Below, one piece after another: positions 7,593-51,690 of a stretch of DNA of 58,878 nucleotides; within the stretch, counting starts at the first letter, position 1; every line of letters starts with the position of its first letter. Source of the DNA: Candidatus Eiseniibacteriota bacterium (GTDB lineage: Bacteria; Eisenbacteria; RBG-16-71-46; DASYSL01); the NCBI GenBank assembly GCA_031431875.1, contig JANPEF010000094.1:1-58878 (forward strand), written 5' to 3'. Position numbers and translations under genes: made by a program. A model generated the notes under the pieces. That model saw only the letters and a list, made by a program, of their open reading frames with translations, was not told where the DNA came from and searched no databases.

Positions 7593-8717
7593 ATGAGCAG
7601 CTTCGTCGCCCCAAGGAACGTCGCCATCCCCGTCGAGCGCACCGCCGTCTCCGGCGAGCGGCTGTGGCTGCACAGCAAGCGTTGGGATCTCACGTTCCTC
7701 GTCGGCAGCGCGGTGCTGGGCGCGATCCCGCTCCTGATGCTGCATGTGTTCAACGTCCCGGTCTCGGCGATCAACCTGATCGTCTCGGGAATCGTGGGGG
7801 GTCCACACCTGTACTCGACGTTCGGCTACACCCTGGCCGACCGTTCGTACCGCAAGCGCTACGGCCTGATCCTGCTGCCGATCCTGTTCATCCCGGTCGG
7901 CGTGATCTACCTCGCGCTCAACAACCTGAACCTGCTCATCACGGTGTTCTTCTTCTGGGCCTCGGTGCACGTGCTGCACCAGATCGCCTACATCAACGAC
8001 GCTTACCGGTTCAAGGATCCGCGGCCGCGCACCATCTGGAATCGCGCCATCGACTACGGCGTGATCTTCAGCGCGCTGTACGCCGCCTCGAGCTCGCGCC
8101 TGGTCACCGGCGGCTTTGTCGTCGGCGGCGGCACGAATCCGCGCGAAATCATGATCCCCGAGTTTGCCAAGGGCGCCATGTGGATCCCGACCATGGCGAC
8201 GGCCGGCTTCCTGATCCTGCTCGCGCTGTATGTGGCGAAGACCGTGCGCGAGCACAAGGAAGGGCGGCTCAACCTGCCGTCGGTCGCGATCATCGGCACC
8301 TCGGTCGTGATGTCGCTGGCGATCCCGCAGTTCCCCAACATCGACATCGCGTTCCAAGGCTACAACACGTGGCACTCGTTCCAGTACCTGGCGCTCGTCT
8401 GGTACATCAACAAGCTGCGGCTGGAGCGGGGCGAGATCCACGGACCGGTCATGCGCGCGGTATCCGGCCCGGCCAACACGTGGAAGTTCTACGGCCTTTT
8501 CCTGGGCGCCACGGTGATCGCGTTCGCCACCTCGCTGGTGTTGCAGTACGGCTTCGGCTGGCCGCGCGACGCAGCGTACTACGGCGTCGTGCTGGGCACA
8601 CTGCTGGTGCACTACTACCTCGACGGGCTCAACTTCTTCTCGTGGGGCCGCCTGATCGGCGGCGAGCCGGGCTCGAGCGAACTGGCCGCGATGACGCGGC
8701 AACAAGGCGCTGCCTGA
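7593..8717 (+). CDS. polytopic membrane protein with four His motifs (putative metalloenzyme)
   Basis: GGAGGA RBS; about 9-10 hydrophobic segments; GPHLYST, VHVLHQ, WHSFQY, VHYYLD. Confidence 0.75.
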   Translation: MSSFVAPRNVAIPVERTAVSGERLWLHSKRWDLTFLVGSAVLGAIPLLMLHVFNVPVSAINLIVSGIVGGPHLYSTFGYTLADRSYRKRYGLILLPILFIPVGVIYLALNNLNLLITVFFFWASVHVLHQIAYINDAYRFKDPRPRTIWNRAIDYGVIFSALYAASSSRLVTGGFVVGGGTNPREIMIPEFAKGAMWIPTMATAGFLILLALYVAKTVREHKEGRLNLPSVAIIGTSVVMSLAIPQFPNIDIAFQGYNTWHSFQYLALVWYINKLRLERGEIHGPVMRAVSGPANTWKFYGLFLGATVIAFATSLVLQYGFGWPRDAAYYGVVLGTLLVHYYLDGLNFFSWGRLIGGEPGSSELAAMTRQQGAA

Positions 8718-8742
8718 GTTCGAGCCGAAGGCGAGAAAAGAG

Positions 8743-8782
8743 AAACCCCCGCGGGGCTCAGGCCCTGCGGGGGTTTTCGTTT
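8743..8782. terminator. bidirectional intrinsic terminator
   Basis: AAACCCCCGCGGGGC-TCAG-GCCCTGCGGGGGTTT hairpin with T-tract downstream and A-tract upstream, between convergent genes. Confidence 0.85.
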
Positions 8783-8816: not shown

Positions 8817-9461
8817 CTAGCTAGCCTTGGCTCTGTACTTGATCGAGCAGCCCAGCGCCTTCGTCTGCGCGGTCGCCACCGACTTGCCGGAGGCGACGGC
8901 CGTGACCGCGTTCTCGAGGTAGGGCTTGGTCACCTTCGCCGCGTCGTCGGCGTTGTCGTCGATCGCGCCGTGGTAGACGAGCGCGCCGGTGGTGTCGAAC
9001 AGGAACACCTCGGGCGTCCGGCTGGCGCCGAACGCGCGGGCGACGTCGCTCGTCAGGTCCATCGCGTAGGCGAACTTCATGCCCAGCTTCTTCGCCCGCG
9101 CCTGCATGACGTCGTAGCCGTCCTCCTTGTTGCGCGCGGGATCGTTCGAGTTGATGGCCACGACGCCGATGCCGCGCTTGACCGCGTCATTGCCGATCTT
9201 CGCCGCGCGGGCTTCCCACTTCTTGGCCCAGGGGCAGGCATTGCAGGTGAAGATCACCAGCGTGCCCTTCTTGCCCTTGGCCGAAGCGATGGTCACGTCC
9301 TTGCCGTCGACGTTCTTGAGCTTGGCGTCGGCCATCGGAATCGCGGCGCCGAGGGCGATCGGGGTCGGCGCCGGCGCGTTCTGCTGCGCCAGGGCCGGGG
9401 TGACGGGAGCCGCGGCGAGCGCCACGAAGGTGGCCAGGGCGGCGATGGAACGAGCAAACAT
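8817..9461 (-). CDS. exported thioredoxin-fold redoxin (AhpC/TSA, PRX-like1 type)
   Basis: Signal peptide; FTCNACPW, INSND, FGASRTPEVF, YHGAIDD, GCSIKY; GGAGG RBS before ATG 9461. Confidence 0.85.
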   Translation of the reverse strand: MFARSIAALATFVALAAAPVTPALAQQNAPAPTPIALGAAIPMADAKLKNVDGKDVTIASAKGKKGTLVIFTCNACPWAKKWEARAAKIGNDAVKRGIGVVAINSNDPARNKEDGYDVMQARAKKLGMKFAYAMDLTSDVARAFGASRTPEVFLFDTTGALVYHGAIDDNADDAAKVTKPYLENAVTAVASGKSVATAQTKALGCSIKYRAKAS

Positions 9462-9487
9462 GGAGGGCCTCCGAAAGTGTGGGTGCG

Positions 9488-10045
9488 TCAGTTGCCGGAT
9501 GCTAGAGCCGGGAGGACACGGGCGCGCAGCGAGTCGTACGACGCCTTGCCCTCCCACGAGCGGACCCGCCGACCTGCTTCATCGTAGAGGAAGGACCCGG
9601 GGAGTGCGCCAGACCAGGATGGGTCGAGGGTGTCAATAAATTGCATGTCGTCACCGGTCTTGAGGTACGCGGGACCGCCCACGCCCTGCTCGGCGAGGAA
9701 CGACTTTGCATTCGGCAGGTCGTCGGTGAAGTCGGCCGAGACGAAGATCACGCGGAGGCCCTGGTCCGCCAGCTCGTGCGACAGGCGCACCAGGTCGGGG
9801 AACTCCTCGCGGCACGGCTGGCACCAGCTGGCCCAGACATTGACCAGGGTGAGCTTCGCGCCACCGGCGCGGACCGCGGCGACGACCCCCGGGCCGTCGA
9901 CCGCCGTGAACACGATCGAGGCGGTGTCGACGGGGGCGGCGGCTTGAGGTTGCGGGGATTCGTGCCGCTCGGGAGTGCAGCCGGTGAGGACGACGAGCGT
10001 CAGGACGATCGCCGCGACGCGGCCGGGAATGGATCGGGTTCTCAT
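9488..10045 (-). CDS. TlpA/ResA-family thiol-disulfide oxidoreductase lipoprotein
   Basis: Lipobox LTGC; NVWASWCQPCREEFP; WSGALP; ATG overlaps the upstream TGA. Confidence 0.85.
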   Translation of the reverse strand: MRTRSIPGRVAAIVLTLVVLTGCTPERHESPQPQAAAPVDTASIVFTAVDGPGVVAAVRAGGAKLTLVNVWASWCQPCREEFPDLVRLSHELADQGLRVIFVSADFTDDLPNAKSFLAEQGVGGPAYLKTGDDMQFIDTLDPSWSGALPGSFLYDEAGRRVRSWEGKASYDSLRARVLPALASGN

Positions 10046-11082
10046 GGAGTGGGTTCTCCAAAGTCCCTGGCGACGAAGACACGGAACGAGACGGGGACAT
10101 CGAGCTGCGCGCCGGTGGCCCGGCCCCAGAGGGGCACGCGGAGCTCGCCCCCGAGCGTGACTCCGAGCTTCGCCGCGGCGTGGGCAGCGCGCGCCTCGGC
10201 GTAGAGGTCGGTGCGTCCGAGGTTTCCCTCGCTCTCGACGTGGCCCGCCCAGGTCTCGGTGCTCTCGCCGTAGAGCGTCGGCCCGAGCGAAAGGGTCGTG
10301 CGCGGAATGCCGAAGCTGCTCGAGGCGTAGATCTGCCCGAGCATCTGGTCCCCCGCGCGGTAGCCGTCCTGGTTCGTCCACACGCCCCAGCGCGCGATCA
10401 CCTGCGCCGTCGCCGCCCAGCCATCGAAGGCACGAACCAGCCCGAGCGAGGCGATCGGCTGCACGGTTCCACTGCCCATCTGGACGTGCTCGTGCGGCAG
10501 GCCCTCCTCGCCGAGCACGAACGGATTCTCCACCGTGCTGCCGAGCGGCAGGCTCACCCCGGCGCGCGCACCCAGCGTCCAGCCACCACGCTGTGTCCCG
10601 GTCGCGACCAGCAGCCACGGATCGGCGAGGCCGGTGAGGGTCCGGTTCGTGTGGTGAAAGTCCGGCGGATCCGGCGTGAACGGCACGCCTTCGAGCGTGC
10701 GAAACGTGATCTGCTGACGATTGAGTCGCAGCGGCACGAGTGCCTCGACGGCGACGCCGCGAGCGACTCCCCACTGGGCGGAGAGGCTCAAGTCGGCGGT
10801 CTCGATCTTCAGGTCATGCCGGTACGGCGTGACTTCCATCGAGTCGCAGGCCGGGCCCAAGTCCGGGCAGTGCTGTTCATGTTGATTGCGGAATCCACCT
10901 CCGCCCAGCCCCATGCTCACGTGCACGGTGCGGGCCGGCACGGGCAATACGCTCCGCCCGCCGACCGGCAGGCCGGGATTGCTTCAACCGGCTCAGCCCG
11001 CATCGGCGTGGGTCACGCCAGGGAAGACCACGCCGGCGAGCGCGACGATGAAGCCGAGCCCGAGGAGAGGGTGCCGCCTCAC
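10042..11082 (-). CDS. putative selenoprotein: outer-membrane channel-like protein with N-terminal UxxU motif (two in-frame TGA, 346 aa)
   Basis: GTG 11082 overlaps the upstream stop; the signal peptide continues in frame through TGA 10995-10993 and TGA 10986-10984 into ORF 10042..10947; GLADP..L, GVSLPLG and QMGSGT motifs and alternating beta-strands resemble COG4313/MetA-pathway channels. Confidence 0.75.
10944..10982 (-). promoter_or_regulatory. bacterial SECIS-like stem-loop
   Basis: mRNA after the second UGA: A-GCAAU-CCCGG-CCUGCC-GGUC-GGCGGG-CGGAGCGU-AUUGC; the apical loop begins 17 nt after the second UGA and 26 nt after the first. Confidence 0.65.
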
Positions 11083-11768
11083 TTGCCGCCGGCCTTCGCG
11101 ATCGCGCGATCGAGACGGTCGAGGTCGAGGCCCTGGATCGCGGCCACGCGCTTGCCCTTGCCGTCGTAGACGAGGACATAGGGAAGCCCCGAGGTGTTCT
11201 TCAGGTAGCGGCGGGCGAGCGGGGTTTCCCAGTCGACGACATCGAGCTTGCGCAGCGCGATGTCCGGGCGGGCGGCGAGAACGATCTTCATGTGGCGGTC
11301 GACGCTGCGGCAGGGGCCGCACCAATCGGCGTAGAAGTCGACAACGGTGACCTTGCCGGGGACGAGGATCGCGGCGAGGTCCGGCAGGTCCTTGCCGCCC
11401 CGCACGGCGATCGCGACGTCGGACGCCGGATCGAAGCCCTCGGGGGGCAGCCACCGGCCCTTGCCCGGGCCCTCGACTGCAGTGAATCCAGCGCGCTTCA
11501 CGGCGGCGATCAACTCGGAAGTGTCCAGCGGGCGATCAGCGACGATCGTGACTTCGACGCTGCGGCGGTCGAAGCGCAGGCCGGTGATGCCCTTCACCTG
11601 CTTCAGTTGGGGCTTCACCTTTTCCCAGCACGTTGCGCAGTCGAGTCCCTGCAGGGACAGGACGACCTCTTGCGGCGCATCCTTTGCGCCGGCCGAGCAT
11701 GGCGTCGCGAATGCGACGAGCGCAAGCAGCACGAGGAACGCCGCGAGACGGCTGCGAAGCGGGATCAT
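11079..11768 (-). CDS. exported heavy-metal-associated (HMA) domain plus thioredoxin fusion
   Basis: Signal peptide; GLDCATC HMA motif; DFYADWCGPC thioredoxin motif; ATG overlaps the MFS stop. Confidence 0.85.
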   Translation of the reverse strand: MIPLRSRLAAFLVLLALVAFATPCSAGAKDAPQEVVLSLQGLDCATCWEKVKPQLKQVKGITGLRFDRRSVEVTIVADRPLDTSELIAAVKRAGFTAVEGPGKGRWLPPEGFDPASDVAIAVRGGKDLPDLAAILVPGKVTVVDFYADWCGPCRSVDRHMKIVLAARPDIALRKLDVVDWETPLARRYLKNTSGLPYVLVYDGKGKRVAAIQGLDLDRLDRAIAKAGGK

Positions 11769-13180
11769 GACTTCGACAGTACGCTCGTCAGCGGTGCGCG
11801 ACAAGCCTGGGCGACCAGCGCCTCGAGCTCGTCACGCTGCACGCCGCCGGGCCAGTGACGCACGCGCACCGGCGCGCCCGCGGTCCAGTCGGCCTCGAGC
11901 ACCGCGGCCCGGCCGACGAGCGCGCGATGCACCGCGCCCCAGCTCGACTCGTCGAGCCCGGGCGCGTCGAGCAGCGTCTCGACCAGCGTGGCGGGATCGC
12001 GCAGCAGGCGCAGCGACAGCGCCCACACGGCGATCGCCACGGCGAGCACGATCAGCGGCGCGCCGCGGCCGACCGGAAGGATCAATCCCGACACCGCGCC
12101 GCCGATGAAGGCGCCCGAGAACTGGACCATGTTGAAGACGCCGGCAGCGGTGCCCCGTGCACCGCGTCCGGTGTACAGCGTGAGCAGTGCGGCGAGCAGC
12201 GGCTCGATCGCGCCGAACCCGGCCACGAACACGGCGAGGAAGACGGTGGTCAGGCCGAGGTCGCGATGGAACGCGGCGAGTCCGACCAGGCCGACGATCA
12301 TCGCCACGGCGGCGACCGCGAGCACGGCGCGGCGGCGGGACGCGCGGTCGGCGATACGCGAACTGAGCAGGAGCGAGCCCAGGCCCGCCAGCAGCGCGGG
12401 CGCGTAGACCTTCCACAGCGCGAGGTCGGCGACGCCGCGGTCCTTGAGCACGAACGGCACGACGACGAACAGGCCCGTCACCGCTGCGTGCAGCACGAAG
12501 ATGCCGCCGTCGAGCACGAGCAGCGAGCGGTCATGAAACAGCGAGCGCGCCTCGGCCCACGACCACGATCCCGGCGAACCCGGCCGGGCGCGATGGCCGC
12601 GCACCATGTGCGGCACGAGGCGCGTCGGCACCAGGACCTCGAACAGCAGCACGCCGACGATCGAGAGCACGGCCGCCGCGCCGAACACCGCGGGGACACC
12701 AGCCTGCGCCGAGACGAGCGGGCCGAGGAGGAAGCCCGCGGCGAACGCGAAGCCCAGGATCAGGCCCAGCAACGCCATGCCCCGCGTGCGCACCTCGTCG
12801 CGCGTGTGATCGCCGATCAGCGCGATCATCGTCGAGGCCATCGCACCCACGCCCTGGATCAGGCGGCCCACGATCACGGCGCCGATCGAACCGGCCCAGG
12901 CCACGACCGCCGAGCCGAGCGAGAAGATGAGCAGCGCGACGATGATGACGAGGCGCCGGCCGCGCAGGTCCCCGAGGATGCCGAGCGGGACCTGGAAGAT
13001 CGCCTGGGTGAGCCCGTAGGCGCCGAGCGCGATGCCGACCAGGAACGGGGTCGCGCCCGGCAGCCCGGCGGCCCAGGTGGCCATCAGGGGCAGGGCCATG
13101 TAGAGCCCGACCATGCGCAGGGCGTAGACGCCGCTGGTGCCCAGCACGATGCGCAGTTCGTCGCGGGAAAATGGGGCCAT
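11765..13180 (-). CDS. MFS transporter, YajR-like
   Basis: LRMVGLYMALP, GAYGLTQAIFQVPLG.LGD.RGRR motif A; 12 TM helices plus a small C-terminal soluble domain. Confidence 0.85.
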   Translation of the reverse strand: MAPFSRDELRIVLGTSGVYALRMVGLYMALPLMATWAAGLPGATPFLVGIALGAYGLTQAIFQVPLGILGDLRGRRLVIIVALLIFSLGSAVVAWAGSIGAVIVGRLIQGVGAMASTMIALIGDHTRDEVRTRGMALLGLILGFAFAAGFLLGPLVSAQAGVPAVFGAAAVLSIVGVLLFEVLVPTRLVPHMVRGHRARPGSPGSWSWAEARSLFHDRSLLVLDGGIFVLHAAVTGLFVVVPFVLKDRGVADLALWKVYAPALLAGLGSLLLSSRIADRASRRRAVLAVAAVAMIVGLVGLAAFHRDLGLTTVFLAVFVAGFGAIEPLLAALLTLYTGRGARGTAAGVFNMVQFSGAFIGGAVSGLILPVGRGAPLIVLAVAIAVWALSLRLLRDPATLVETLLDAPGLDESSWGAVHRALVGRAAVLEADWTAGAPVRVRHWPGGVQRDELEALVAQACRAPLTSVLSKS

Positions 13181-13305: not shown

Positions 13306-14091
13306 ATGCTCGGCTTCCTCGGCGGTCTCCTCGGCAGCTTCGCGCGGTTTCTCGCGGGGCTCCAGGAACTGACGTTGTTCTCGGCGCGGGTCTTTCGATC
13401 CTGCTTCCGGGGGCCGTTCTACTGGCGCGACGTCTACGAGCAGGCCTACGTGGCGGGTGTGGGCTCCATGCACCTGGCGCTCATCTCGGCGTTCTTCGCC
13501 GGGCAGGCGCTGGGCCTGCAGTTCGCGCGCCAGCTCGCCGAGACGGGGACGGTGACCCTGCTCGGCACGCTGATGACCATCGCGGTCGTGCGCGCGCTGG
13601 GGCCCGACCTGATCGGCCTGGTCGTCGCCGCGCGCATGGCCTCGGGCTACACTGCCGAGATCGGCGCCATGAAGAGCGCCAACCAGATCGACGCCCTGGT
13701 CGCCTTCGGCACGGATCCGATCAAGAAGCTGGTCGTGCCGCGCGTGCTGGCGCTGTTCGTCATGTTGCCGTTGCTCGTCATCCTCGGCGACGCGGTCGCG
13801 CTGATCGGCGGCGCGATCATGGCCAAGTACGTGGCGCACGTGTCCCTGAGCCTGTACTGGAGCCAGGCGTCGCGCGCCATGACCTTCGGCACCATCCTGA
13901 TCGGCGTCGTCAAGCCCGCGGTGTTCGCACTCCTGATCTCGTTGATCGGCTGCTGGAAGGGCTTCACCAGCTCGGGCGGCACGCGCGGTGTGGGTCGCTC
14001 GACGACCGAGTCGGTGACCATCGTCTCGGTGATGCTGCTGATCACGGACTTCATGCTGACGCGCGTGCTGTTCGCGCTGTTGCGCTGGTGA
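13306..14091 (+). CDS. mlaE: MlaE-family ABC permease
   Basis: LGP.LIGLVVAAR.ASGYTAEIGAMK..NQIDAL...GTDP...LVVPR, GVGRSTT.SV. Confidence 0.9.
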   Translation: MLGFLGGLLGSFARFLAGLQELTLFSARVFRSCFRGPFYWRDVYEQAYVAGVGSMHLALISAFFAGQALGLQFARQLAETGTVTLLGTLMTIAVVRALGPDLIGLVVAARMASGYTAEIGAMKSANQIDALVAFGTDPIKKLVVPRVLALFVMLPLLVILGDAVALIGGAIMAKYVAHVSLSLYWSQASRAMTFGTILIGVVKPAVFALLISLIGCWKGFTSSGGTRGVGRSTTESVTIVSVMLLITDFMLTRVLFALLRW

Positions 14092-14107
14092 GGCGGGAGG
14101 TGAGGGC

Positions 14108-14911
14108 ATGATCCGCTTCGACCACGTGCACTACTCGATCGGCGGCCGGAAGATCCTCGAGGACGTCTCCTTCGACGTGCAGAAGGGGACGACGAAGATC
14201 ATCCTCGGGCCGTCCGGCATCGGCAAGAGCACGGCGCTGCGGCTGATCCTTGGGCTCGTTCGGCCGGACAGCGGGGACATTCTCATCGACGGACGGAGCG
14301 TGGTGAAGGCGGACCGCGAGGAGCTGGACAAGATCCGCCAGGAAATCGGCATGGTGTTCCAGGACGGGGCGCTGTTCGACTCGCAGACCGTGGGGGAGAA
14401 CGTGGGCTACTGGCGCCTCGAGAACTCGGACCAGACTGACGACGAGATCGAGGCCGTCGTGCGCGAAAAGCTGACGCTGGTCGGGCTCGATCCGGAGCTG
14501 ATCGACTCGATGCCCGACGAACTGTCGATCGGCATGCAGCGCCGCGTCGCCATCGCCCGCGCACTGGCCTCGGGGCATCCCAAGATCATCCTCTACGACG
14601 AGCCCACGACCGGCCTCGATCCGAACTCGCTGGAACTGGTCACCGACGCGATCCTGCGGCTGCGCAACGAGCTGGGCATGACCTCGATCGTGGTCACGCA
14701 TCAGCTTACCGACGCCCTCAAGGTGGGCAGCGACTACCTGTTCCTGTTCGACCGCGGCGTGCAGTTCGAAGGCGATGCCAGGGCACTCGCGGCCAGTGAC
14801 GATCCGAAGTTGCGCCAGTTCCTCGACCCGTTCCGCAAGAGCCTGGCCGAAGCCGCCGAGAATTTCGGCGTGGGTCGTGCCGGTGAAGCCACGAGGGTTC
14901 AGACGCCATGA
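14108..14911 (+). CDS. mlaF: MlaF-family ABC ATPase
   Basis: GPSGIGKS, VFQDGALFDS, LSIGMQRRVAIARAL, LYDEPTTGLDP, VVTH. Confidence 0.9.
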   Translation: MIRFDHVHYSIGGRKILEDVSFDVQKGTTKIILGPSGIGKSTALRLILGLVRPDSGDILIDGRSVVKADREELDKIRQEIGMVFQDGALFDSQTVGENVGYWRLENSDQTDDEIEAVVREKLTLVGLDPELIDSMPDELSIGMQRRVAIARALASGHPKIILYDEPTTGLDPNSLELVTDAILRLRNELGMTSIVVTHQLTDALKVGSDYLFLFDRGVQFEGDARALAASDDPKLRQFLDPFRKSLAEAAENFGVGRAGEATRVQTP

Positions 14912-15840
14912 AACGATCCGGAGACATCCGCTGGGGCGAGCTCCGACTCGGCCTCTTCATCTTCGTCGCACTGGCCGTGTTCCTGTGGGCGTCGATCCAG
15001 GGCGGCACGACCCTGTTCAAGAAGCAGTACGAGCTGCACTCCGAGTTCCCCAACGTGCAGGGCGTGGTCGCCGGCGCACCCGTGTGGTTCCAGGGCGTCG
15101 AGGTGGGCACCGTCAAGACGCTCGACTTCGTCGCCTCGGGCGACTCCTCGAAGGTGCGGATCACGTTCACGGTCAACAACCGGGTGTGGCCGCTCATTCG
15201 CGAGGACTCGAAGGTGAAGATCCAGGCGCTGAACCTGTTCGGCGAGAAGTTCATGGAAGTGACGTCGGGCTCACGCTCGGCCGCCCCCGTGCAGGAGGGC
15301 GCGATGCTCGGCTCGGAGCGCCCGACCGACGTGACCCAGCTGATGGCGCGCGGCGAGGGCATCGTCGACGACCTCGGGGTGACGGCGAAGGACCTCAAGG
15401 AGCTCTCCGCGAAGGTGCGCCGCGGCGAGGGCACGCTGGGCAAGCTGGCCACATCCGACGAGCTGTACACGAACCTCAACTCGACGATTGCGCAGGTCCG
15501 CGCGCTGACCGCCAGCCTGGACAAGAGCCAGGTGCAGATGAGCCGCTCGCTCACCGCCACCGCCAACTCGCTCGACAGCGTGATGACGCTGATCCACTCG
15601 GGCGACGGCACCCTCGGCAAGATGGCCCGCGACCCGGCCCTGTACGACAACCTGAGCCGGGCGAGCGGGCGGGTCGACTCGACGCTGGCGCGGGTCGAGC
15701 GCGGCGAGGGGAGCCTGGGGCGGCTGACCAGGGACGACGCCGCGGCGGTGAACCTGGAGAAGAGCCTCGACCAGCTGAACAAGCTGCTGGCCGACCTGCA
15801 GGCGAACCCGAAGAAGTACTTCAAGGTCAGCGTGTTCTAG
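14908..15840 (+). CDS. mlaD: MlaD/MCE-domain protein
   Basis: N-terminal TM; GAPVWFQGVEVGTV; LFGEKFMEV; repeated G(E/D)G(T/S)LGKL helical units; NPKKYF. Confidence 0.9.
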   Translation: MKRSGDIRWGELRLGLFIFVALAVFLWASIQGGTTLFKKQYELHSEFPNVQGVVAGAPVWFQGVEVGTVKTLDFVASGDSSKVRITFTVNNRVWPLIREDSKVKIQALNLFGEKFMEVTSGSRSAAPVQEGAMLGSERPTDVTQLMARGEGIVDDLGVTAKDLKELSAKVRRGEGTLGKLATSDELYTNLNSTIAQVRALTASLDKSQVQMSRSLTATANSLDSVMTLIHSGDGTLGKMARDPALYDNLSRASGRVDSTLARVERGEGSLGRLTRDDAAAVNLEKSLDQLNKLLADLQANPKKYFKVSVF

Positions 15841-15951: not shown

Positions 15952-15980
15952 ATGACCCGCCGATATCCTTCGGGTATACT
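15952..15980 (+). promoter_or_regulatory. putative sigma70 promoter
   Basis: ATGACC, N17, TATACT; argues against the ORF-track TTG start at 15980. Confidence 0.4.
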
Positions 15981-16036
15981 TGCCCTACCTCGACCACGGC
16001 CTGGAGCCGCGGCCCGACAGGGCGCACGGGGATGTC

Positions 16037-17917
16037 ATGTCCTTTCCAGCCGGGCCCGGCGATCGGGAGCCCCACTCCCTCTCGCCCGAACAACTTGAAG
16101 CATGGCGTCGGCGGTCGGCCCGCAACCGGGTCCGGTCCGTCGAGGAGCAGGCTCCTCGTGCGGTCATCCTGATGGTGGCAATCGTGTTGATCGTCTGGCT
16201 TGCCTTCATGCTGTCGACCGCGCTCTCGACCGTGGGCGGAAACCTGCCCGGCTTGACGGCTTCGGCCGCCGAGGCGGCGACGCCACTTTTGTGCGCCACG
16301 CCGCAGTGCGCGCCCGCCGCGATCCAGGATTACGAGTACTCCGCGCCGGCGAACACGTGGGCCGTCGTCGGTGCCCGCTCCGCCTCGAGCCTGGCCGATC
16401 CCGACGTCTGCATCTTCGACGACGCAGGTCTCACCCAGCCGCGCGCGTGCTCGTCGATCACCGACCAGGGCGGCGTCGACTTCGCCGTCGTCGACTACCA
16501 CCACACCGCCGCCGGCACCGATTACGTCCGTGTGTCGCGCACGGGCGCCAGCGGCGACGTGTGCGCGACACTCGACTGCGCGACGACGACGTTGGTCCTC
16601 AACGGGTCGGCGATCACAACCTCCTGGACGGGGAACAGCGTCGTGCGCTCGTTCAACCTGCCGGTCGGCTCGGGCCGCTACCGCGTGGGCGTCGTCGTCA
16701 CCACGGGCACCGCCGACCTGGGTCTGGCCGTGTTCGACTCGGATGGGCAGATCGGCTACGCGGCCGGCCGCAACGGCGCCATCGCCGAGGCCGATGCGAA
16801 CGGGGCGGGCCAGGGCGAGGGGATCTACTTCGCCTCGAGCTCGTCCGACACGCTGGGGCTGGTCGTGTGGTCGAATACGCCGGGGGGCACCGCGACGTAC
16901 CGCATCGAGTTGCGGTCGGTCGACGGGCTGACCGCGAACTCGGCGCTCAACAAGGGTGGCACCGCGCAGGCCGACTTCCTCTACGCGCCCACGGGCACGC
17001 GCGGCTGGTCGGTGCTGGGCCTCAAACCGGGGACCGGCAACCCGCCGCCGGATGCCGACATCAAGATCTACACGCGGCCGGACTACATCACGCAGCTTGC
17101 GCGCTCGAGCGCCGAGAGCGGAATCGTCGACTTCATCGTCGCCAACTACGCGAACGTTCCCGAGGACACCGCGGCCGTGCTGATGATCTCGCTGGGCCCG
17201 ATCGGCAACTACAAGATCGAGTGGACCTACGGCATGCCCGAGCTGATCGCCGGCACCGACACGCCGCTGTCGATGGGCTCGCACGTCGGCGTGGCGTGGA
17301 CGATGGGGATGGTGGCGGGCGTCGAGTACTTCTGGCGGTTCACGCCCAATCCGGGAACGAAGGGCGACGCGTCGATGTCGGTCTACGGGCCGCGCACGAG
17401 CGAGCCCGCGTTCACCTACGGCACGCGCGCCGACTCGCTCGCAGGCTCGGACATCTGGGGCGAGAGCGTGACCGGCTGGGCTGGTGAGAATGGCGTCGAG
17501 GAGTTCTCGATGATCCCGCAGTTCACGGGCGAGCACCTGCTGTACGTCTACCAGAAGGGCTCGCAGGGCGTGACGGGAACGCTGCGCGTCGATGCGCCTT
17601 CGCTCGTGGGCGTGGGCGAGGGCGGCGGACGCCTCGCCTTCGCGACACCGCGGCCGTCGCCGTCCGGAGCGGGACAGAGCGTGCGCTTCGGCTTCGACAT
17701 GCCGGGCGGCGGTGGCGCGACGCGCCTGGTGATCTACAACGCCGCGGGTCGCGCGGTGCGCACGCTGGTCGACGGGGCGCTGCCGGCCGGGCCGGCGAGC
17801 ACGGCGTGGGACGGGCGGGGTGCCGCGGGAGCCGCGGCCGCCCCCGGGATCTACTTTGCGCGGCTGGAGCGGACCGGGGTGGTGACCGAAGTGCGGCGGT
17901 TCGTGCGGCTGGATTGA
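16037..17917 (+). CDS. surface/secreted beta-rich protein with C-terminal FlgD-Ig-like (T9SS CTD-like) domain
   Basis: N-terminal hydrophobic segment; duplicated W.V.G...AD...Y/F...SS...G.VDF.V..Y unit; C-terminal IYNAAGRAVRTL...WDGR...PGIYFARL; start uncertain. Confidence 0.75.
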   Translation: MSFPAGPGDREPHSLSPEQLEAWRRRSARNRVRSVEEQAPRAVILMVAIVLIVWLAFMLSTALSTVGGNLPGLTASAAEAATPLLCATPQCAPAAIQDYEYSAPANTWAVVGARSASSLADPDVCIFDDAGLTQPRACSSITDQGGVDFAVVDYHHTAAGTDYVRVSRTGASGDVCATLDCATTTLVLNGSAITTSWTGNSVVRSFNLPVGSGRYRVGVVVTTGTADLGLAVFDSDGQIGYAAGRNGAIAEADANGAGQGEGIYFASSSSDTLGLVVWSNTPGGTATYRIELRSVDGLTANSALNKGGTAQADFLYAPTGTRGWSVLGLKPGTGNPPPDADIKIYTRPDYITQLARSSAESGIVDFIVANYANVPEDTAAVLMISLGPIGNYKIEWTYGMPELIAGTDTPLSMGSHVGVAWTMGMVAGVEYFWRFTPNPGTKGDASMSVYGPRTSEPAFTYGTRADSLAGSDIWGESVTGWAGENGVEEFSMIPQFTGEHLLYVYQKGSQGVTGTLRVDAPSLVGVGEGGGRLAFATPRPSPSGAGQSVRFGFDMPGGGGATRLVIYNAAGRAVRTLVDGALPAGPASTAWDGRGAAGAAAAPGIYFARLERTGVVTEVRRFVRLD

Positions 17918-18060
17918 GGCGGGCGCCGGGCTTGCCCGGTCAAGCTCTCGTCAAGCCCACCGGCCCCCGAAAATCGCCGGAACCCTCCCCGGGAACCGCG
18001 GTATTACCCGGCAGGGAGCAGAACCAGGCAGCACCTCCAGAACCTCCATTCGGGCGACGC

Positions 18061-18097
18061 ACAGCAGGGGGGCCTTTACCGGCCCCCTTTGCTGTTT
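18061..18097 (+). terminator. strong hairpin, probable terminator
   Basis: ACAGCAGGGGGGCC-TTTACC-GGCCCCCTTTGCTGT followed by a short T run. Confidence 0.5.
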
Positions 18098-18137
18098 CGG
18101 TGGTCCACGGGGTACCGAACGTGGCAGACTGCGCCCC

Positions 18138-19769
18138 ATGTCGTTGACCCCGCGTCGTTTCGCCACCCCCGCCCTTGCCCTCCTGACCGCCAGCGCTCTC
18201 TTCGCCCCGGGACTCCCATGGGAACCGGGCGTCGCGGGCGCGGACATCGCCCGCCTCGCAGTCGACCGCGGGACTTTTTCGCCGAACGGCGACGGGCTCG
18301 TGGATTCGGTGACCGCGACCTGGAGCACCTCCCTGCGAGGCGCCGACAGCATCTACGTCGCGATCTGGCCGGAACCCCGGGACACCCTGGTGCTGGTCCC
18401 GGTGCGCTCGTTCTCGTTCGGCCGCGGGGTGATCGCCCAGAGCTACCGCCTGACGTGGGACGGGCGGACCCAGGGCGGCCCGATTGCGCCCGACTCGCTT
18501 TACCGGATCCAGGTCCGCGAGTCCAACGCTGCCGGCGACACCGTGCGCTCGAAGGCCGAGGTGACGACGTTCCTCGACACGAAGCCGCCGCGCGATCCGT
18601 ACTTCGACAAGGGTTACGATGGCCTGACCGTCACGAGGCAGGACCTGCTCCTCACCGGCTTCGCGCCCGAGGCCGAGAAGGTGTACCTCTACAAGGGCGG
18701 CATCCGTGTCGCCACGCTCCCCGTCTCGAGCCAGGAGGGTACGTTCGAGTACGACGCGACTCTCGACGTGGGCGTGAACTCGTTCGCGCTCCAGAGCATC
18801 GACCGCGGCCTCAATCTTTCGCCGCTCGTGCCGGCGGTCACGATCACTTATGCCAACACCGCCGACATCGGCTTCCTGCGCGTGACGCCGTTCGAGTCGT
18901 CGCCCAATGCCGACGGCTTCGTCGACACGGTCAGGGTCCTGATCGCGCTCGACGCGCCCACGACGCGGCTCCGCGTCGAGATCCGGGAGTCGAATCCGCC
19001 GCTGACCGGAACGCAGTTCGCGGACTCGGTGAACTCGATCGCGACGCTGTTCGACGGTCCAGCCGTTGCCGGCGACCACGAGTTCTACTGGTTCGGACGG
19101 GACAGCAGCGGGACGGCCGTCGCCGACGGCAGCTGGTGGGCGTTTGCCCAGGCCGAGAGCGCCGGCGCGCTCGGGGAGCCGTTGCCCGGCCGGAAGGTGT
19201 TCACGCGCTTCGTGGTCGACAACACACCGCCGCCGGTGCCGGTTCCCGACGCGGGAACGGTGACCGAGACGTCGCGCAACTTCGTCGGGCTGCAGGGCAA
19301 CACGCCCGGCGCCGACTCCGTCTACGTCGCGCGCGGTGGCACGGTCGTGTCCCGCATCACCGGGCCGCGCTGGAGCACGTCCCCGAATCTCCTGCTCGGC
19401 GACAATTCGTTCACCTTCCGCGCCGTCGATCGCGCCGGGAACCGCTCGGCCTTCAGCCCGCCGTTCGTCGTCACCTACTCCGAGCTGGTCGGCTTCCACG
19501 CGCCCGAACGATTCCGCGCCACCGACGTGTTCGACCTCAACGTGACGAAGACCGCGCGCGCCGTGCAGATCGACCTCTATGACCTGCGCGGCCGCCGCGT
19601 CCGCACGCTCCTGGTGAACCAGCTCAACCAGCGCTACGAACTGCCGTGGAACGTGAAGGACGACGCGGGCAACACGGTCGGCGACGGGCCGTACGTGGCG
19701 CGGGCGACCGTGACCTACGAGGACGGGACGACCAGCGTCACGACCGCCGCCGTGGTGGTGGCGAAGTGA
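18138..19769 (+). CDS. secreted protein with three FlgD-Ig-like and two bacterial Ig-like domains
   Basis: Signal peptide; FSPNGDG...WDGR, SPNADG...WFGRDSSG, LYDLRGRRVRTL...WNVKDDAG...GDGPY; DT.PP...DR(A/G)..N.S units. Confidence 0.8.
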   Translation: MSLTPRRFATPALALLTASALFAPGLPWEPGVAGADIARLAVDRGTFSPNGDGLVDSVTATWSTSLRGADSIYVAIWPEPRDTLVLVPVRSFSFGRGVIAQSYRLTWDGRTQGGPIAPDSLYRIQVRESNAAGDTVRSKAEVTTFLDTKPPRDPYFDKGYDGLTVTRQDLLLTGFAPEAEKVYLYKGGIRVATLPVSSQEGTFEYDATLDVGVNSFALQSIDRGLNLSPLVPAVTITYANTADIGFLRVTPFESSPNADGFVDTVRVLIALDAPTTRLRVEIRESNPPLTGTQFADSVNSIATLFDGPAVAGDHEFYWFGRDSSGTAVADGSWWAFAQAESAGALGEPLPGRKVFTRFVVDNTPPPVPVPDAGTVTETSRNFVGLQGNTPGADSVYVARGGTVVSRITGPRWSTSPNLLLGDNSFTFRAVDRAGNRSAFSPPFVVTYSELVGFHAPERFRATDVFDLNVTKTARAVQIDLYDLRGRRVRTLLVNQLNQRYELPWNVKDDAGNTVGDGPYVARATVTYEDGTTSVTTAAVVVAK

Positions 19770-28288: not shown

Positions 28289-31200
28289 TCAGGGCAGGCG
28301 CACGATCTTCCTGCGATCCGACTCCGCTCCGGCGCGCAGCAGCACGAAGTAGACGCCGGCCCCGGCAGCCCGCCCCGTCTCGTCGCGTCCGTCCCAGAGC
28401 AGGGAAGTCGCACCGGGCGGCCGCACACCCGCGAGCAGACGCCGCACGCGCACACCCCGCACGTCGAGCACGTCGAGCGTGACCTCACCCGGGCGTGCCA
28501 GCGTGAATGCGATGCGCGTCGCCCCGCCCTGTGCGGCCGACGACGGATTCGGCGTTGCGGCCTCCAGGCGCGCCACGCCGACCGCCTTGCGCGAGTCCTC
28601 CACATCGACGACCACACCGTTCGACCAGACGTCGATGTCGCCGCTCGCGTGGGCCTCGGGAGTCACCCAGCGCGATCGCTGGAAGAACGGCGAGTTCGAG
28701 ACGAGGCGGCCGCGGACGTGATAGCCGCGGCCGGGCCACGGCAGCGTGATCGTCGGGAAAAGTTCGTTTGGAAAACCGGGAGTGCCCGAATCGACGAAGC
28801 CCGTGATGTTCGTCGGCACCCCGGTGAACGGAGTGTTCTGCGTCCGCCGCTCGATGCGCACGGCCACCCTGGCCCGACCGGCAGCGCTGCGGAGGATCAT
28901 CCCTCCCGACAGCAGGTTCGGGGAGTCGAGGCGTGTGGGGTGGAAGCGGCGTGGCGACCCCACGGCATCCTCGAGCAGGCGGAGGCGGTTCGACAGCCCG
29001 CCTTTCGGTCCTGCCGGGGTGAAGAGGCATGTGCGTCCGGTCGCTCCCGGCGCTCCGACGACAAGGTCGGCGAGACCGTCGAGATCAAGATCGGCGAGCG
29101 GGGCGAACGCTGCCCCGAGTTCGGCGCCGGTGATGTGGAGCTCGACGTTCCAGTCCGGGGTGGGCGACGGGCCATCGACCCCGCCCCGGTAGACGAGGAA
29201 TCGGCCTTCATCCGTGTTGCCGTTGTCCCATCCGGGCTCGCCGATTGCGAGATCTGCGATGCCGTCCCCGGTCATGTCGCCACCGCCGGTGAACGCCTGG
29301 CCGAAGCGGCCGCCGGCCTGGGTGCCCGCCTTGCTCCAGATCACGGCGTTCGTCTGCGAGCGCCCCAGCGTGCCGGCATGGACGTAGACGCGACCGGTCG
29401 TGCCTTCGTCGGGCGCGCCAACGCCGAGGTCGCACAGACCGTCCCCGTTCACGTCACCAACGGACGCGACCGCGCTGCCGTACGATGGGCTCGACGGATT
29501 GCCCTTGAGCGCGAGACCGGGTACAGCGGCCACGCCGCCGGGGCCACCGTAGTAGACCTCGACCTTGCCGTTGGCCGGGGTCGGCGCATCGCTCGGCGTC
29601 GACGAGCCGATGACGACGTCCGAGTATCCATCGGCGTCGAGGTCGCCGAAGGCGACTCCGGCGCCCAGGCCCTGCAGCACGGCCGTCCCCTCGACCGACC
29701 AACCCGGAGCCAGCGGTGCGGCCGCGCCGCCGTAACAGAGCCATACCTTGCCGCAACCCGCCCGACCCGGGCCGCTCCAGCGTGAACTCGCGATCAGGTA
29801 ATCGTGATAGCCGTCGCCGTTCACGTCGCCACGCCCGGCGAGCGCGGTGCCGATCCACGCGAACGCCTGGTCGCCTATGAGCGCGGGCGTGCCGTTGTTC
29901 TGCGCGCCTGGGGCGCCCACGTAGAGCTCGACGTATCCCGCTTCGGAACCGGCCGCGGTCGGAAGCTGCGGCATGGACACGAGGAGGTCCGAGAAACCGT
30001 CGCGATTGACGTCGCCCGCATCGACGACGCACGTACCGAGCGCGGTGTTGGACCCCGCGTATCCGCCGCGCTCGGCGACCGGATTGGCGCCGCCCTTCCT
30101 TCCGCGATGGAACTCGAACGCGCCCCGGCCATTCAGGTGAGGCGAGCCGATGACGAGCTGGGGGAAGCTCCCGTTGTCGTGTTGCGGCAGGATGGCGAGC
30201 GAAGACCCGGCGCGCGAGCCCACCTCGTTGGCGTCCTTCGGCCATCCGGTGGCGAAGGACAACGGGCGGGGGTTGAGCGTGATCAGGAATGCACTCCCGA
30301 ACTGCGCCGCATTCAGTCCACCGCCGAGCGGATCGCCGATCAGGATCTCCGAGAAGCCGTCACCGTTCACGTCGCCCGACGCGGCCACGGACGAGCCGAA
30401 AGTCCTCGAGAGCTCCGGATCCCCCATGATCACGCCCAGGGTGAAACCCCCGTCCGGGTCCCCCCGGAACACGTGGACGCGACCCGGGCCCCCGGGCGGC
30501 AAGAAGTCCGGGACCCCGACCGCGACGTCCGAGTAGCCGTCGGCATCGAGATCGCCCACCGTGGCCACGCTCGTTCCCGCCCGGCAACCGGGGGCACCTC
30601 CGCCGATCATGAACTGGCTCGAGTAGAGGCCCGAGGGTCCGCCGAACCAGAGGTCCGCGCGACCGCCCTGCACGACCCCATCGTCATAGCCAGGCTGTCC
30701 GATGATCACGTCGGCGTAGCCGTCTCCGGTGTAGTCGCCGGCCGTCGCGACGGCGGTGCCGCAGCGGGCCTCGCTCCGGGTGCCGACGAGAATCGTGTCC
30801 GCGACCGCGAGCACGCCGCCGGCCGATCCGAAGAACAGCCACGCCGCGCCGTTGTTCGTCAGCCCACCGCTGCTGCGGTACGGTGCACCGATCAGGATGT
30901 CGTCGAACCCGTCCGCATTGACGTCGCCGGCCGTCGCCACACCAAGGCCGAAGCCGGCATTTCCCTGGTCGCCCAGCAGCGTGCGCGCGGGGGTGGCAGC
31001 GAGCCCGGCCGGGCCGCCCAGGTGAACATAGACCGCTCCGCGATTGGCCAGAACCCCGTCCGAGTAGCCGGATGCGCCGATGATCGCGTCGGAATAGCCG
31101 TCCCCATTGACGTCGCCGGCGGTCGCCACCTGACCATAGAAGCGGAGGACGGCCGGAGACGGGCCGGTCAGTTCGTACGTCGGCGTGGCGGGCAATCCCG

Positions 31201-31663
31201 ACGGACTCCCGTGGAAAACGGCGACCTTGCCGGAGGCCACCAGGTTCGGCGCGGTCCAGGTTTCAACACCGACCAGGACGTCGAAGTATCCATCGGCGTT
31301 GACGTCGCCGGCCGACGCGATCGAGCCGCCGGTGCCGGCCTCCTGCTGATTCGCGCGCCAGGTCCACACGGGGACCAGCGAGAGGCCCTGCGCCGAGCCC
31401 AGGTAGAGGAAGACGCGCCCCTCGTTGGGGAATGCAACGGAATCGTTCTGGGCGCTGACCAGGACGTCGCCGAACCCGTCGCCGTTGACATCGCCGGCAG
31501 GAACGACGTTCCCACCGTACTGCGAGCCGAGACGTGGTCCGACCGTCGTCCAGGCCGTGGCGAAGCCACTGACGTCAGCGTTGATCCGGGGGTCCGGGGT
31601 CGGTGCGAGCGGCGTGCCGGTCCCGAGCAGCGTGGCGATGGCGATGACGCTTCGGATGTCCAT
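28289..31663 (-). CDS. FG-GAP/integrin-alpha-like repeat protein (14 repeats) with C-terminal FlgD-Ig-like domain
   Basis: GGGAGGGG RBS; 14 GD.(N/D).DG..D...G.P units (one degenerate); C-terminal PNPS...LDVRGVRVRRL...WDGRDETG...GVYF. Confidence 0.9.
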   Translation of the reverse strand: MDIRSVIAIATLLGTGTPLAPTPDPRINADVSGFATAWTTVGPRLGSQYGGNVVPAGDVNGDGFGDVLVSAQNDSVAFPNEGRVFLYLGSAQGLSLVPVWTWRANQQEAGTGGSIASAGDVNADGYFDVLVGVETWTAPNLVASGKVAVFHGSPSGLPATPTYELTGPSPAVLRFYGQVATAGDVNGDGYSDAIIGASGYSDGVLANRGAVYVHLGGPAGLAATPARTLLGDQGNAGFGLGVATAGDVNADGFDDILIGAPYRSSGGLTNNGAAWLFFGSAGGVLAVADTILVGTRSEARCGTAVATAGDYTGDGYADVIIGQPGYDDGVVQGGRADLWFGGPSGLYSSQFMIGGGAPGCRAGTSVATVGDLDADGYSDVAVGVPDFLPPGGPGRVHVFRGDPDGGFTLGVIMGDPELSRTFGSSVAASGDVNGDGFSEILIGDPLGGGLNAAQFGSAFLITLNPRPLSFATGWPKDANEVGSRAGSSLAILPQHDNGSFPQLVIGSPHLNGRGAFEFHRGRKGGANPVAERGGYAGSNTALGTCVVDAGDVNRDGFSDLLVSMPQLPTAAGSEAGYVELYVGAPGAQNNGTPALIGDQAFAWIGTALAGRGDVNGDGYHDYLIASSRWSGPGRAGCGKVWLCYGGAAAPLAPGWSVEGTAVLQGLGAGVAFGDLDADGYSDVVIGSSTPSDAPTPANGKVEVYYGGPGGVAAVPGLALKGNPSSPSYGSAVASVGDVNGDGLCDLGVGAPDEGTTGRVYVHAGTLGRSQTNAVIWSKAGTQAGGRFGQAFTGGGDMTGDGIADLAIGEPGWDNGNTDEGRFLVYRGGVDGPSPTPDWNVELHITGAELGAAFAPLADLDLDGLADLVVGAPGATGRTCLFTPAGPKGGLSNRLRLLEDAVGSPRRFHPTRLDSPNLLSGGMILRSAAGRARVAVRIERRTQNTPFTGVPTNITGFVDSGTPGFPNELFPTITLPWPGRGYHVRGRLVSNSPFFQRSRWVTPEAHASGDIDVWSNGVVVDVEDSRKAVGVARLEAATPNPSSAAQGGATRIAFTLARPGEVTLDVLDVRGVRVRRLLAGVRPPGATSLLWDGRDETGRAAGAGVYFVLLRAGAESDRRKIVRLP

Positions 31664-31804
31664 GGCCCCTCCCGGCTGGTGCGACGCCAAGTCGATTGCT
31701 CGAGGGAAGCAACATCGTGCAATGGGCGCCAAGTCTAGCATTCCCTGCAATCCGCCCCCAGCGCGGTCTTTTCAGCATCTTGACCCGCCCGACCGGCGGT
31801 TGCG

Positions 31805-50652: not shown

Positions 50653-51552
50653 CTAGCCGAACAGGTCCCGCCGCGCCACGCGCGTGAGCTCGAGCACCGC
50701 CGGATGCTTGATGCGCCGCTCCACCGACACCGCGAAGAACCGCTCCCGCACGCCGGTCAGCATGCCGATGCGGCGCAGATCGTACTGCGCTCGCAACTCG
50801 CGCTCGATCACGACCGGCGAGGCAACGACGCCAAAGCCCGCCTGCCCGAACGACTTCATGAGCGCGCTGTCCTCGAACTCGCCGACGACCAGCGGGCGGA
50901 TCTCGCGCCGGTCGAACCAGGCGTCGACCTGGCGGCGGAGCGCCGTCCCCTCCAGCGGCAGGAGGATCGGCGCGCCTTTGAGGCTGGCTGGGAACCGGGG
51001 GCGCAGGCGCCGGGCCATGGCTGCCGGCGCGTAGAGCGCGACGTCGCAGGCGCCCAGCAGGTGGGGATACGCCCGCAGCGGCGCTCCGGCGGAGGGCGGG
51101 GAGTCGGTGAGCACGAGATCCAGCTCGTGGATCGCAAGTGCGGCGAACAGGCGGTCGACGCGATCCTCGCGCACGGTCAGGCGGACGGGCGTGGGGAGGC
51201 GCAGCGCCGGCTCGATCAGCCGCTGGGCGACAAGCTTGGGCAGGACGTCGGCGACGCCGACGGTGAACTTGATTGGGAGGCCCGTCGGGCGGTCGCGCAG
51301 CGTGTCGAGCATCTCGCGGCCCAGCCCGAAGATCTCGTCCGCGTAGCGCTGCACCAGGCGGCCGGTCTCGGTCGGCTCGAGGCCGCGCCCGACGCGGGTG
51401 AAGAGCGCCGCGCCCAGGAAGTCCTCGAGGCTGCGGATCTGCCCCGACAGCGTGGGCTGCGACAGTCCGAGGGCGCGCGCCGCGCGGGCGACACCGCCCT
51501 CGCGCGTGACCATCCAGAAGTAGAACAGGTGATGGTAGTTGAGGCGTTCCAT
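50653..51552 (-). CDS. nhaR: LysR-family regulator, NhaR-like
   Basis: LNYHHL.YFW.V.REG.V..AA..L..SQPT.SGQI, GEFEDSALMK.FG, ERRIKHP. Confidence 0.85.
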   Translation of the reverse strand: MERLNYHHLFYFWMVTREGGVARAARALGLSQPTLSGQIRSLEDFLGAALFTRVGRGLEPTETGRLVQRYADEIFGLGREMLDTLRDRPTGLPIKFTVGVADVLPKLVAQRLIEPALRLPTPVRLTVREDRVDRLFAALAIHELDLVLTDSPPSAGAPLRAYPHLLGACDVALYAPAAMARRLRPRFPASLKGAPILLPLEGTALRRQVDAWFDRREIRPLVVGEFEDSALMKSFGQAGFGVVASPVVIERELRAQYDLRRIGMLTGVRERFFAVSVERRIKHPAVLELTRVARRDLFG

Positions 51553-51564
51553 GTCGGCCAGTCT

Positions 51565-51579
51565 ATCGGAATACCCGAT
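51565..51579. promoter_or_regulatory. LysR-type operator (T-N11-A dyad)
   Basis: ATCGG-AATAC-CCGAT, abutting the -10 box (TAGACT) of the LysR gene, between divergent nhaR and terC. Confidence 0.6.
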
Positions 51580-51690
51580 GGGTTCGATCCAAAGATTTGA
51601 TTATCACGAATCAAGGTCCGGCCCCCATCCTTGGCAGGTCGGCGGCGCCCTCAGGGTGGCCTGCCCCACGACGCTCCCGAGGAGAACCCC

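Follow-up and report, generated by a model that had tools for sequence, protein, structure and literature searches.

The locus at positions 8817-13180 of contig JANPEF010000094.1 from a Candidatus Eiseniibacteriota genome (58,878 nucleotides analyzed, hereafter the window) raises two questions: whether its central gene, which is interrupted by two in-frame UGA codons and predicted to encode an exported beta-barrel, specifies a selenoprotein, and whether the five genes of the locus work together. A preliminary description made from the letters alone had proposed a five-gene envelope operon built around a candidate selenoprotein. Gene calling and translation placed all five genes on the minus strand, with the barrel gene (11082-10042; GTG start; 346 amino acids [aa]) directly behind the gene of an exported HMA-thioredoxin protein (11768-11079; 229 aa; DCATC and WCGPC motifs; Pfam HMA and Thioredoxin). 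The UGA codons, codon 30 (U30; 10995-10993) and codon 33 (U33; 10986-10984), lie just past the signal peptide (signal peptides of the window proteins were assigned by eye), in the context DAG-U-A-G-U-SNP, where U stands for selenocysteine (Sec). Comparison across genomes indicates that the barrel is almost certainly a selenoprotein and very likely carries two Sec residues. Judged by gene linkage, the HMA-thioredoxin is its conserved partner, and the two core genes, HMA-thioredoxin first and barrel second, make up a cassette that is the conserved unit; the unit to study is two genes, not five. On the same comparative grounds, the operon is ordinary apart from an exchangeable slot, in which this selenoprotein cassette sits.

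The family of the barrel gene comprises 428 clusters at the 50% identity level. In species-representative genomes, a scan yielded 248 confirmed barrel matches, of which the best 80 were analyzed, which biases all proportions toward near homologs; removal of two duplicates and addition of five intact loci from relatives gave a set of 83 loci, to which two genomes contribute two loci each. At these loci the motif reads UxxU (46), CxxU (17), or CxxC (20), and never UxxC. The first UGA position is thus occupied by Cys in 37 of the 83 loci, and the second UGA is present in every homolog with any UGA. In 63 homologous loci from several phyla, TGA falls at exactly the two Cys positions and the reading frame stays open downstream. 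Among the 120 protein database matches listed, 35 are full-length proteins with CxxC right behind the signal peptide; the N-terminal motif is missing from the other 85, most of which start downstream of it, as would result from gene callers stopping at the UGA. In a quick tree computed with the motif and hairpin residues left out, the CxxU form involves at least four changes on well-supported branches; this form occurs together with the partner in cultured myxobacteria (Archangium, Pyxidicoccus, and Myxococcus records). The series points to the second motif position as the essential one, and three homologs that read GQATCSNPG (P0179, P0182, and P0188), in which the second Cys alone is retained, point the same way.

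Decoding of the UGAs as Sec would rely on a SECIS-like (selenocysteine insertion sequence) hairpin at 10956-10973 on the minus strand, which consists of a 7-bp stem with a GGUC loop and encodes (G)LPVGG. Its loop lies 26 nt downstream of U30 and 17 nt downstream of U33, and both distances are within the 16 to 37 nt of the bacterial SECIS loop consensus as given in the catalogue article PMC13188914. The GGTC loop stands behind the second UGA in 64 of 64 UGA forms (window included) versus 0 of 20 CxxC forms, and at two stem pairs, both in synonymous positions, G-C, C-G, and U-A replace one another. Hairpin covariation reached 0.387, a value attained in 0 of 500 shuffled alignments (0.135), and slid controls stayed at or below 0.049; kinship inflates covariation tests, and the slid control retains that kinship. 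The mean local minimum free energy is -11.7 in UxxU forms versus -3.9 in CxxC forms. The stability of the window hairpin carries no weight by itself (z = -0.32; 66 of 200 shuffles fold as stably), and a loose UGA-plus-hairpin pattern occurs 111 times genome-wide, mostly without meaning; covariation is the sole hairpin evidence that counts. The outermost stem pair, 11-28 (columns 23 and 40 of alignment A3), is formed in 44 of 47 UxxU forms versus 2 of 17 CxxU forms. With four independent pairs this contrast is not significant in a sign test, and the suggested requirement of pair 11-28 for reading the first UGA is a lead only.

Consistently with Sec decoding, the window genome encodes selA, selB, selD, and tRNA-Sec (selC), all scoring above cut-offs. 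The search for selA, which covered 50 of the 78 named loci and includes related, nonindependent genomes of unstated completeness, detected the gene in 28 of 31 UGA-form genomes (26 above cut-off) versus 0 of 19 CxxC genomes; it was likewise found in all five relatives with a UxxU barrel. If instead the barrel gene were a pseudogene, or its TGAs true stops, the hairpin would be a product of chance in DNA of 70% GC. The unexceptional fold energy and the commonness of the loose pattern speak for this, as do decayed barrel copies in three relatives (G055, G059, and G040). Against it stand the 63 loci with TGA at the exact Cys positions followed by open frames, a hairpin that covaries in UGA forms only, and the tracking of UGA forms by selA, and we grant it hardly any probability. 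The motif series, the covarying hairpin, and the selA match thus uphold the selenoprotein of the preliminary description over its pseudogene alternative. Among the decayed copies, the one in G055 (L014) has kept UAGU and has lost about 90 internal residues, the hairpin, and the partner; the N-terminus is gone from that in G059 (L013), and a short fragment is left in G040 (L016). A remoter barrel (L015; G045:C11:65755-66306) carries CSMCQCG behind its signal peptide and represents a related subfamily with a Cys-rich plug. In the one RNA run, which holds only a small share, no listed contig piece falls on the barrel gene, and the run speaks neither for nor against expression.

Which genes travel with the barrel was read from the same 83 loci. 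In 67 of them, the gene immediately upstream of the barrel encodes a thioredoxin, always of the same subfamily, and in 8 such a thioredoxin is fused to the barrel C-terminus; in one locus the contig ends there, and in seven no thioredoxin was found (two of the 83 assignments were set by eye). Among 31 long homologs from a search at the 50%-cluster level, 26 have a fused thioredoxin and 7 a cupredoxin-like domain.

The other three genes behave differently. The locus starts with a gene for a YajR-like MFS transporter (13180-11765; 471 aa; Pfam MFS_1), and the barrel gene is followed by those of a TlpA/ResA-like lipoprotein (10045-9488; 185 aa; WCQPC; LTGC lipobox recognized by eye) and an exported redoxin of the AhpC/TSA fold (9461-8817; 214 aa; TCNACP, i.e., CNAC; Pfam AhpC-TSA/Redoxin). 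The first four genes are joined by exact 4-nt overlaps (ATGA at 11765-11768, GTGA at 11079-11082, and ATGA at 10042-10045), the TlpA and redoxin genes are 26 nt apart, and an intrinsic-terminator-like hairpin follows at ~8742-8779 (z = -4.4; 0 of 200 shuffles as stable). Since T-runs flank this hairpin on both strands, it probably serves as terminator for the converging gene at 7593-8717 as well. The five genes with their motifs, overlaps, and single terminator are therefore as first described, and on this layout all five could act as a single envelope system, with the barrel served by three thioredoxin folds and the cargo carried over the inner membrane by the MFS protein. The same order recurs in G007, a genome of a different genus, with 55 to 61% identity for all five proteins, and TlpA or the redoxin could act opportunistically on the barrel in this organism. 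However, G007 is the only one of 60 relatives with this order, and the only one of the 83 barrel loci with homologs of the MFS, TlpA, and redoxin genes within ~5 kb. TlpA and redoxin genes are adjacent in 40 of the 60 relatives, 35 of which have no intact or near-intact barrel match, and four others carry the barrel on a separate contig. The MFS gene was found in 12 of the 60 relatives and in none of the 48 genomes of family f3, three of which have intact barrels. Within the genus, all five genomes keep the flanking genes without the cassette, four of them with selA. We consider the five-gene system quite improbable. Judged from these distributions, the MFS, TlpA, and redoxin genes are cotranscribed neighbors dispensable to the cassette.

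Accordingly, the gene-neighborhood check suggested by the preliminary description fails on co-occurrence for three of its five genes. What survives of its operon is the barrel with the HMA-thioredoxin (75 of 83 loci linked), and of its three barrel-serving thioredoxin folds only that partner, TlpA and redoxin being an independent pair. Nothing ties the MFS protein to the cargo of the barrel, and its assigned role in moving that cargo across the inner membrane is not supported. All three proteins are ordinary members or close relatives of known families, in which nothing special was found. The MFS protein aligns over residues 8-407, covering the 12-helix core, to PDB entry 3wdo (E = 4.7e-57), which the search output labels merely "MFS transporter" and which we take to be E. 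coli YajR; a C-terminal tail of 65 residues, where a YajR-type protein would have its YAM domain, extends beyond the aligned stretch. The redoxin resembles PDB entries 2ywi, 3u5r, and 2cvb. NCBIfam agrees with the Pfam domain assignments of the proteins other than the barrel. In two relatives (L116 and L119), the TlpA-redoxin pair follows genes that look by eye like radical-SAM and metallophosphoesterase genes, and the context of the pair is otherwise variable.

The closest relatives delimit the slot. In G001, G003, G004, and G005, all of the same genus, the MFS gene is followed directly by those of TlpA and redoxin, and the cassette is absent. In G002, the closest relative (96% DNA identity on the MFS side), a toxin-antitoxin-like pair of Gp49 (PF05973) and HTH_37 genes fills the slot on the opposite strand (L107:2459-3119), and the MFS tail and the TlpA signal peptide also diverge. 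The stretch that differs corresponds to window positions 9943-11799. Contigs span the cassette-free junctions in the same-genus genomes, which excludes an assembly gap, and a contig from a different study (run X7) skips 9943-11799 and has 807 other letters in its place. The junction looks like an exchange hotspot. Loss of the Sec machinery was considered as the cause of cassette loss within the genus and rejected, as selA is kept in four of the five genomes. The 55 to 61% identity shared by all five proteins with G007 fits ancestral presence followed by repeated loss. G+C content at third codon positions is 0.84 to 0.87 in the cassette and TlpA genes versus 0.89 to 0.97 in the flanks, and the cassette may have been transferred into the slot.

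What the cassette does has to be approached from the predicted fold of the barrel. The AlphaFold2 model computed from 112 sequences has twelve strands (predicted local distance difference test score [pLDDT], 92.2). Its best structural match is Pput2725 (4rl8; Z = 23.8; root mean square deviation, 2.6 over 248 residues; 13% identity), followed by FapF (5o65; Z = 22.3); autotransporter barrels score lower (Z ~18), as does PcoB (Z = 12.2). Residues 13-315 of the model align with 4rl8 chain positions 1-268, model residue 13 facing residue 1 of 4rl8. The lumen of Pput2725 is closed on its periplasmic side by a plug made of the first 14 residues (PMC4493636), and the UxxU pair of the window barrel, mature residues 4 and 7, is by this alignment modeled just ahead of the plug-aligned segment. 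His residues 68, 89, 143, 144, 197, and 199 are invariant or nearly so across the family, and strand order would put all six on the outer face. Pfam PF13557 matches 25 of 112 family members at E ≤ 0.01 (best, 1e-9); the window barrel itself has no Pfam match, PF13557 included, and a PDB sequence search with the family profile returned nothing useful. On this structural model, the protein is probably a 12-stranded outer-membrane barrel and a distant member of COG4313.

The barrel might accordingly be a channel of the COG4313 type whose solute is hydrophobic or amphipathic, such as an organometal or a thiol-reactive compound, with the Sec pair and the thioredoxin acting merely as a redox switch on the plug. 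The fold match to Pput2725 and the PF13557 matches favor such a channel, and TcpY and SphA have been linked to the uptake of hydrophobic molecules (PMC4493636). On the other hand, identity to Pput2725 is only 13%, no catabolic genes recur among the barrel neighbors at the 83 loci, and such a channel would explain neither the invariant His/Glu residues nor the metal-binding accessory domains, of which there are four kinds; we hold this solute channel to be unlikely. A tie between the COG4313-like fold (as in SphA, for sphingosine uptake) and a neighboring sphingolipid operon was likewise considered and found no support, such neighbors not being recurrent.

The accessory domains come with the partner or with the barrel itself. 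The N-terminal domain of the upstream partner is HMA in 14 loci, 12 of which have its CxxC. In another 48 loci, plus 3 partial ones, it is a tandem Cys/His repeat (C-x-H...CxxC/H; L056:5312-5944, residues 30-95, and about 50 similar loci), which replaces HMA in myxobacterial partners, has no Pfam family, and finds a 0.77 match without a name in a protein atlas. Cupredoxin-like tails end in C-x-M-x-M, which we take to be a Cu(I) site as in CupA, and two barrel fusions terminate in a heavy-metal-binding domain (HMBD). Four relatives (G006, G009, G045, and G048) carry HMA-thioredoxin genes without a barrel beside them (L121, L122, L123, and L124). In all four the HMA CxxC is gone and the thioredoxin CxxC retained, whereas 12 of the 14 barrel-linked copies keep the HMA CxxC.

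We propose, in a reading that in our judgment could go either way, that the two-gene cassette is a selenol-gated channel whose cargo is a soft metal, copper being the most likely, with a periplasmic reductant and chaperone. SelB acting on the single hairpin would read both UGAs, the six invariant His residues on the outer face would capture the ion, and the UxxU pair, located where the plug begins, would bind it or gate the pore by its redox state. The thioredoxin domain of the partner would hold the selenol pair reduced, with electrons probably drawn from a DsbD-type protein (the window genome encodes a DsbD_TM protein), and the HMA domain, or elsewhere the Cys/His repeat, cupredoxin, or HMBD, would receive the ion in the periplasm. 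Copper is favored because the four different accessory domains are metal carriers and because of the C-x-M-x-M ends of the cupredoxin tails. Flow in either direction, uptake or removal, is compatible with a metal channel. The soft-metal cargo of the preliminary description thus gains from the accessory domains, the channel function itself being a prediction. We entertain more tentatively the fuller version in which the barrel belongs to an uncatalogued family of outer-membrane channels, whose N-terminal diselenide or selenol pair would be both gate and ligand for copper or a similar soft metal and whose dedicated thioredoxin-metallochaperone, be it separate or fused, would open the pore and collect the ion; that both Sec residues come from one SECIS hairpin is a part of it that we see as possible to the same tentative degree.

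Several points weigh against a metal channel. Selenium in the barrel, transport, and metal binding all rest on prediction. The UxxU segment is modeled at low confidence (residues 1-6 under pLDDT 50; mean pLDDT of 63 over residues 1-10 in the model of a Cys homolog), and its placement relative to the lumen, like the side on which the His cluster lies, is deduced from the model. For the characterized COG4313 channels, the link is to hydrophobic solutes and not to metals (PMC4493636). At seven loci a UGA-form barrel lacks an adjoining thioredoxin, and the loss of the HMA CxxC from copies with no barrel beside them amounts to about three independent cases in draft genomes. Heavy-metal regulators or transporters lie within ~5 kb at about 16 of the 83 loci, a count that has no baseline and includes close kin, and most flanking genes at these loci are unrelated to metals. 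Finally, the second site of the Cys/His repeat is CxxCH in 45 of 46 cases and could bind haem instead of a metal ion.

The haem-like site also fits a redox relay, in which electrons would pass from the thioredoxin through the barrel diselenide to an outside substrate (a selenium, tellurium, or sulfur oxyanion, polysulfide, a disulfide, or Cu(II)) at the outer membrane. Thioredoxin is the sole constant part of the partner, the metal-type domain being swapped, and CxxC-spaced Sec pairs are typical of oxidoreductases (PMC13188914). In the myxobacterial repeat, CxxCH further occurs at site 1 in 19 of 46 cases, a weak match to cytochrome c7 was found (E = 0.01), and the Archangium loci have a convergent glutathione reductase gene. 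This neighbor is, however, confined to one clade. As in metal sites, CxxHH or CxxCN is frequent at site 1, which departs from CxxCH in 26 of 46 cases, with one CK form in addition, and each of the two sites has further C-x-H and WC-x-x-H ligands ahead of it. The HMA, cupredoxin-like, and HMBD domains carry metals, and thiol exchange has no need of six invariant His residues. We regard the relay as doubtful, yet as a real possibility.

The metal-related neighbors counted above comprise MerR-type regulators, CorE-like sigma factors, CDF transporters, P1B-ATPases, and CusA/CzcA-type RND pumps, several of them assigned by clustering with one scanned member. CorE sigma factors are marked by a CxC linker and a Cys-rich tail (PMC8999054), and CorE-like extracytoplasmic function sigma factors are encoded just 5′ of four CxxC-form cassettes (L055:4674-5270, L061:4053-4802, L088:4072-4746, and L069). 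Small Cys-rich open reading frames (ORFs) with Pro-rich ends, apparently exported, were also noted (L056:4849-5151, L046:4021-4311, L087:4948-5247, L053:6579-6932, and L123). They sit ahead of the cassette or of a nearby efflux pump, the one in L123 being upstream of an HMA-thioredoxin gene. By eye they look like the copper-sensing leader peptides CruR/CutF as described in PMC9426467, which is a lead only; four scanned Cys-rich ORFs had no match to DUF2946.

Set against known systems, the barrel shares its predicted 12 strands and plug-aligned N-terminal segment with the COG4313/PF13557 channels (Pput2725, TcpY, and SphA) and with FapF. Unlike the COG4313 channels, it combines distant sequence and no Pfam match with UxxU, CxxU, or CxxC ahead of the plug, six His residues, and a dedicated thioredoxin; the main text of the Pput2725 paper (PMC4493636) never uses the word "Cysteine". 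Exported Sec-containing beta-barrels are known in the GSU2204-family CXXCH protein (MtrB/PioB-like; NF041027) and the FCYXU TonB-dependent receptor (NF049945) (PMC13188914), which carry one Sec each and belong to other barrel families. Sec pairs three codons apart also occur in the NF041115 metal-binding protein, an FmdB-family regulator, and a Prx-like oxidoreductase (PMC13188914); these are small soluble HMA-like, regulatory, and thioredoxin-fold proteins, whereas here UxxU heads a membrane barrel, and NF041115 resembles only the HMA domain of the partner (27.9 bits; cut-off, 95). The HMA CxxC, the cupredoxin-like and HMBD fusions, and, at a minority of loci, the MerR-type, CorE-like, and CusA-type neighbors recall MerP/CopZ and periplasmic copper systems (OprC, PcoB, and Cus/Cop). 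However, HMA is here fused to thioredoxin and scores far below the cut-offs of MerP (31.5 bits; 92.55) and the CopZ models (17 to 30 bits; 85 to 95), short of the score expected in a mer or cop/cus operon, and the barrel matches PcoB only at Z = 12.2 and is far smaller than TonB-dependent receptors. No NCBIfam 20.0 model matched the window barrel at E ≤ 0.1, nor five Cys or fused homologs at 0.01. Table 1 of the 119-family selenoprotein catalogue of 2026 (PMC13188914) has no COG4313/PF13557 entry, its only barrels being GSU2204 and the TonB receptor; the accessible portions of PMC9312934 and PMC12013277 hold nothing closer, and that of PMC3621798 shows no link. Our literature search found no description of the barrel family, which the supplements of the catalogues could list. 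The cassette probably functions in the manner of the plugged COG4313 channels, and it fits none of the catalogued selenoprotein families.

Elsewhere in the window, mlaE-, mlaF-, and mlaD-like ABC genes (13306-15840; mlaE assigned by NCBIfam just below cut-off, mlaF and mlaD by eye) diverge from the MFS gene, a linkage kept in same-genus genomes. Three large exported-looking proteins with terminal FlgD-Ig domains, one of which has 13 FG-GAP repeats, are encoded at 15980-19766 and 28292-31750. At 50656-52653, the gene of a regulator, LysR-type by eye, diverges from that of a TerC-family membrane protein (PF03741).

Gene callers cut the barrel after its UGAs, and it is consequently filed as a truncated hypothetical protein and absent from the 2026 catalogue. 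To our knowledge, almost all known selenoproteins are soluble redox enzymes; the channel proposed here would, if true, put a selenoprotein in or at an outer-membrane pore. The occurrence of the CxxU form with its partner in cultured myxobacteria leaves this function open to a genetic test. The natural series of UxxU, CxxU, and CxxC, with no UxxC, together with a single covarying hairpin, allows a direct test of double-UGA decoding by bacterial SelB, and the barrel gene would then be a natural reporter for the reading of two UGAs three codons apart.

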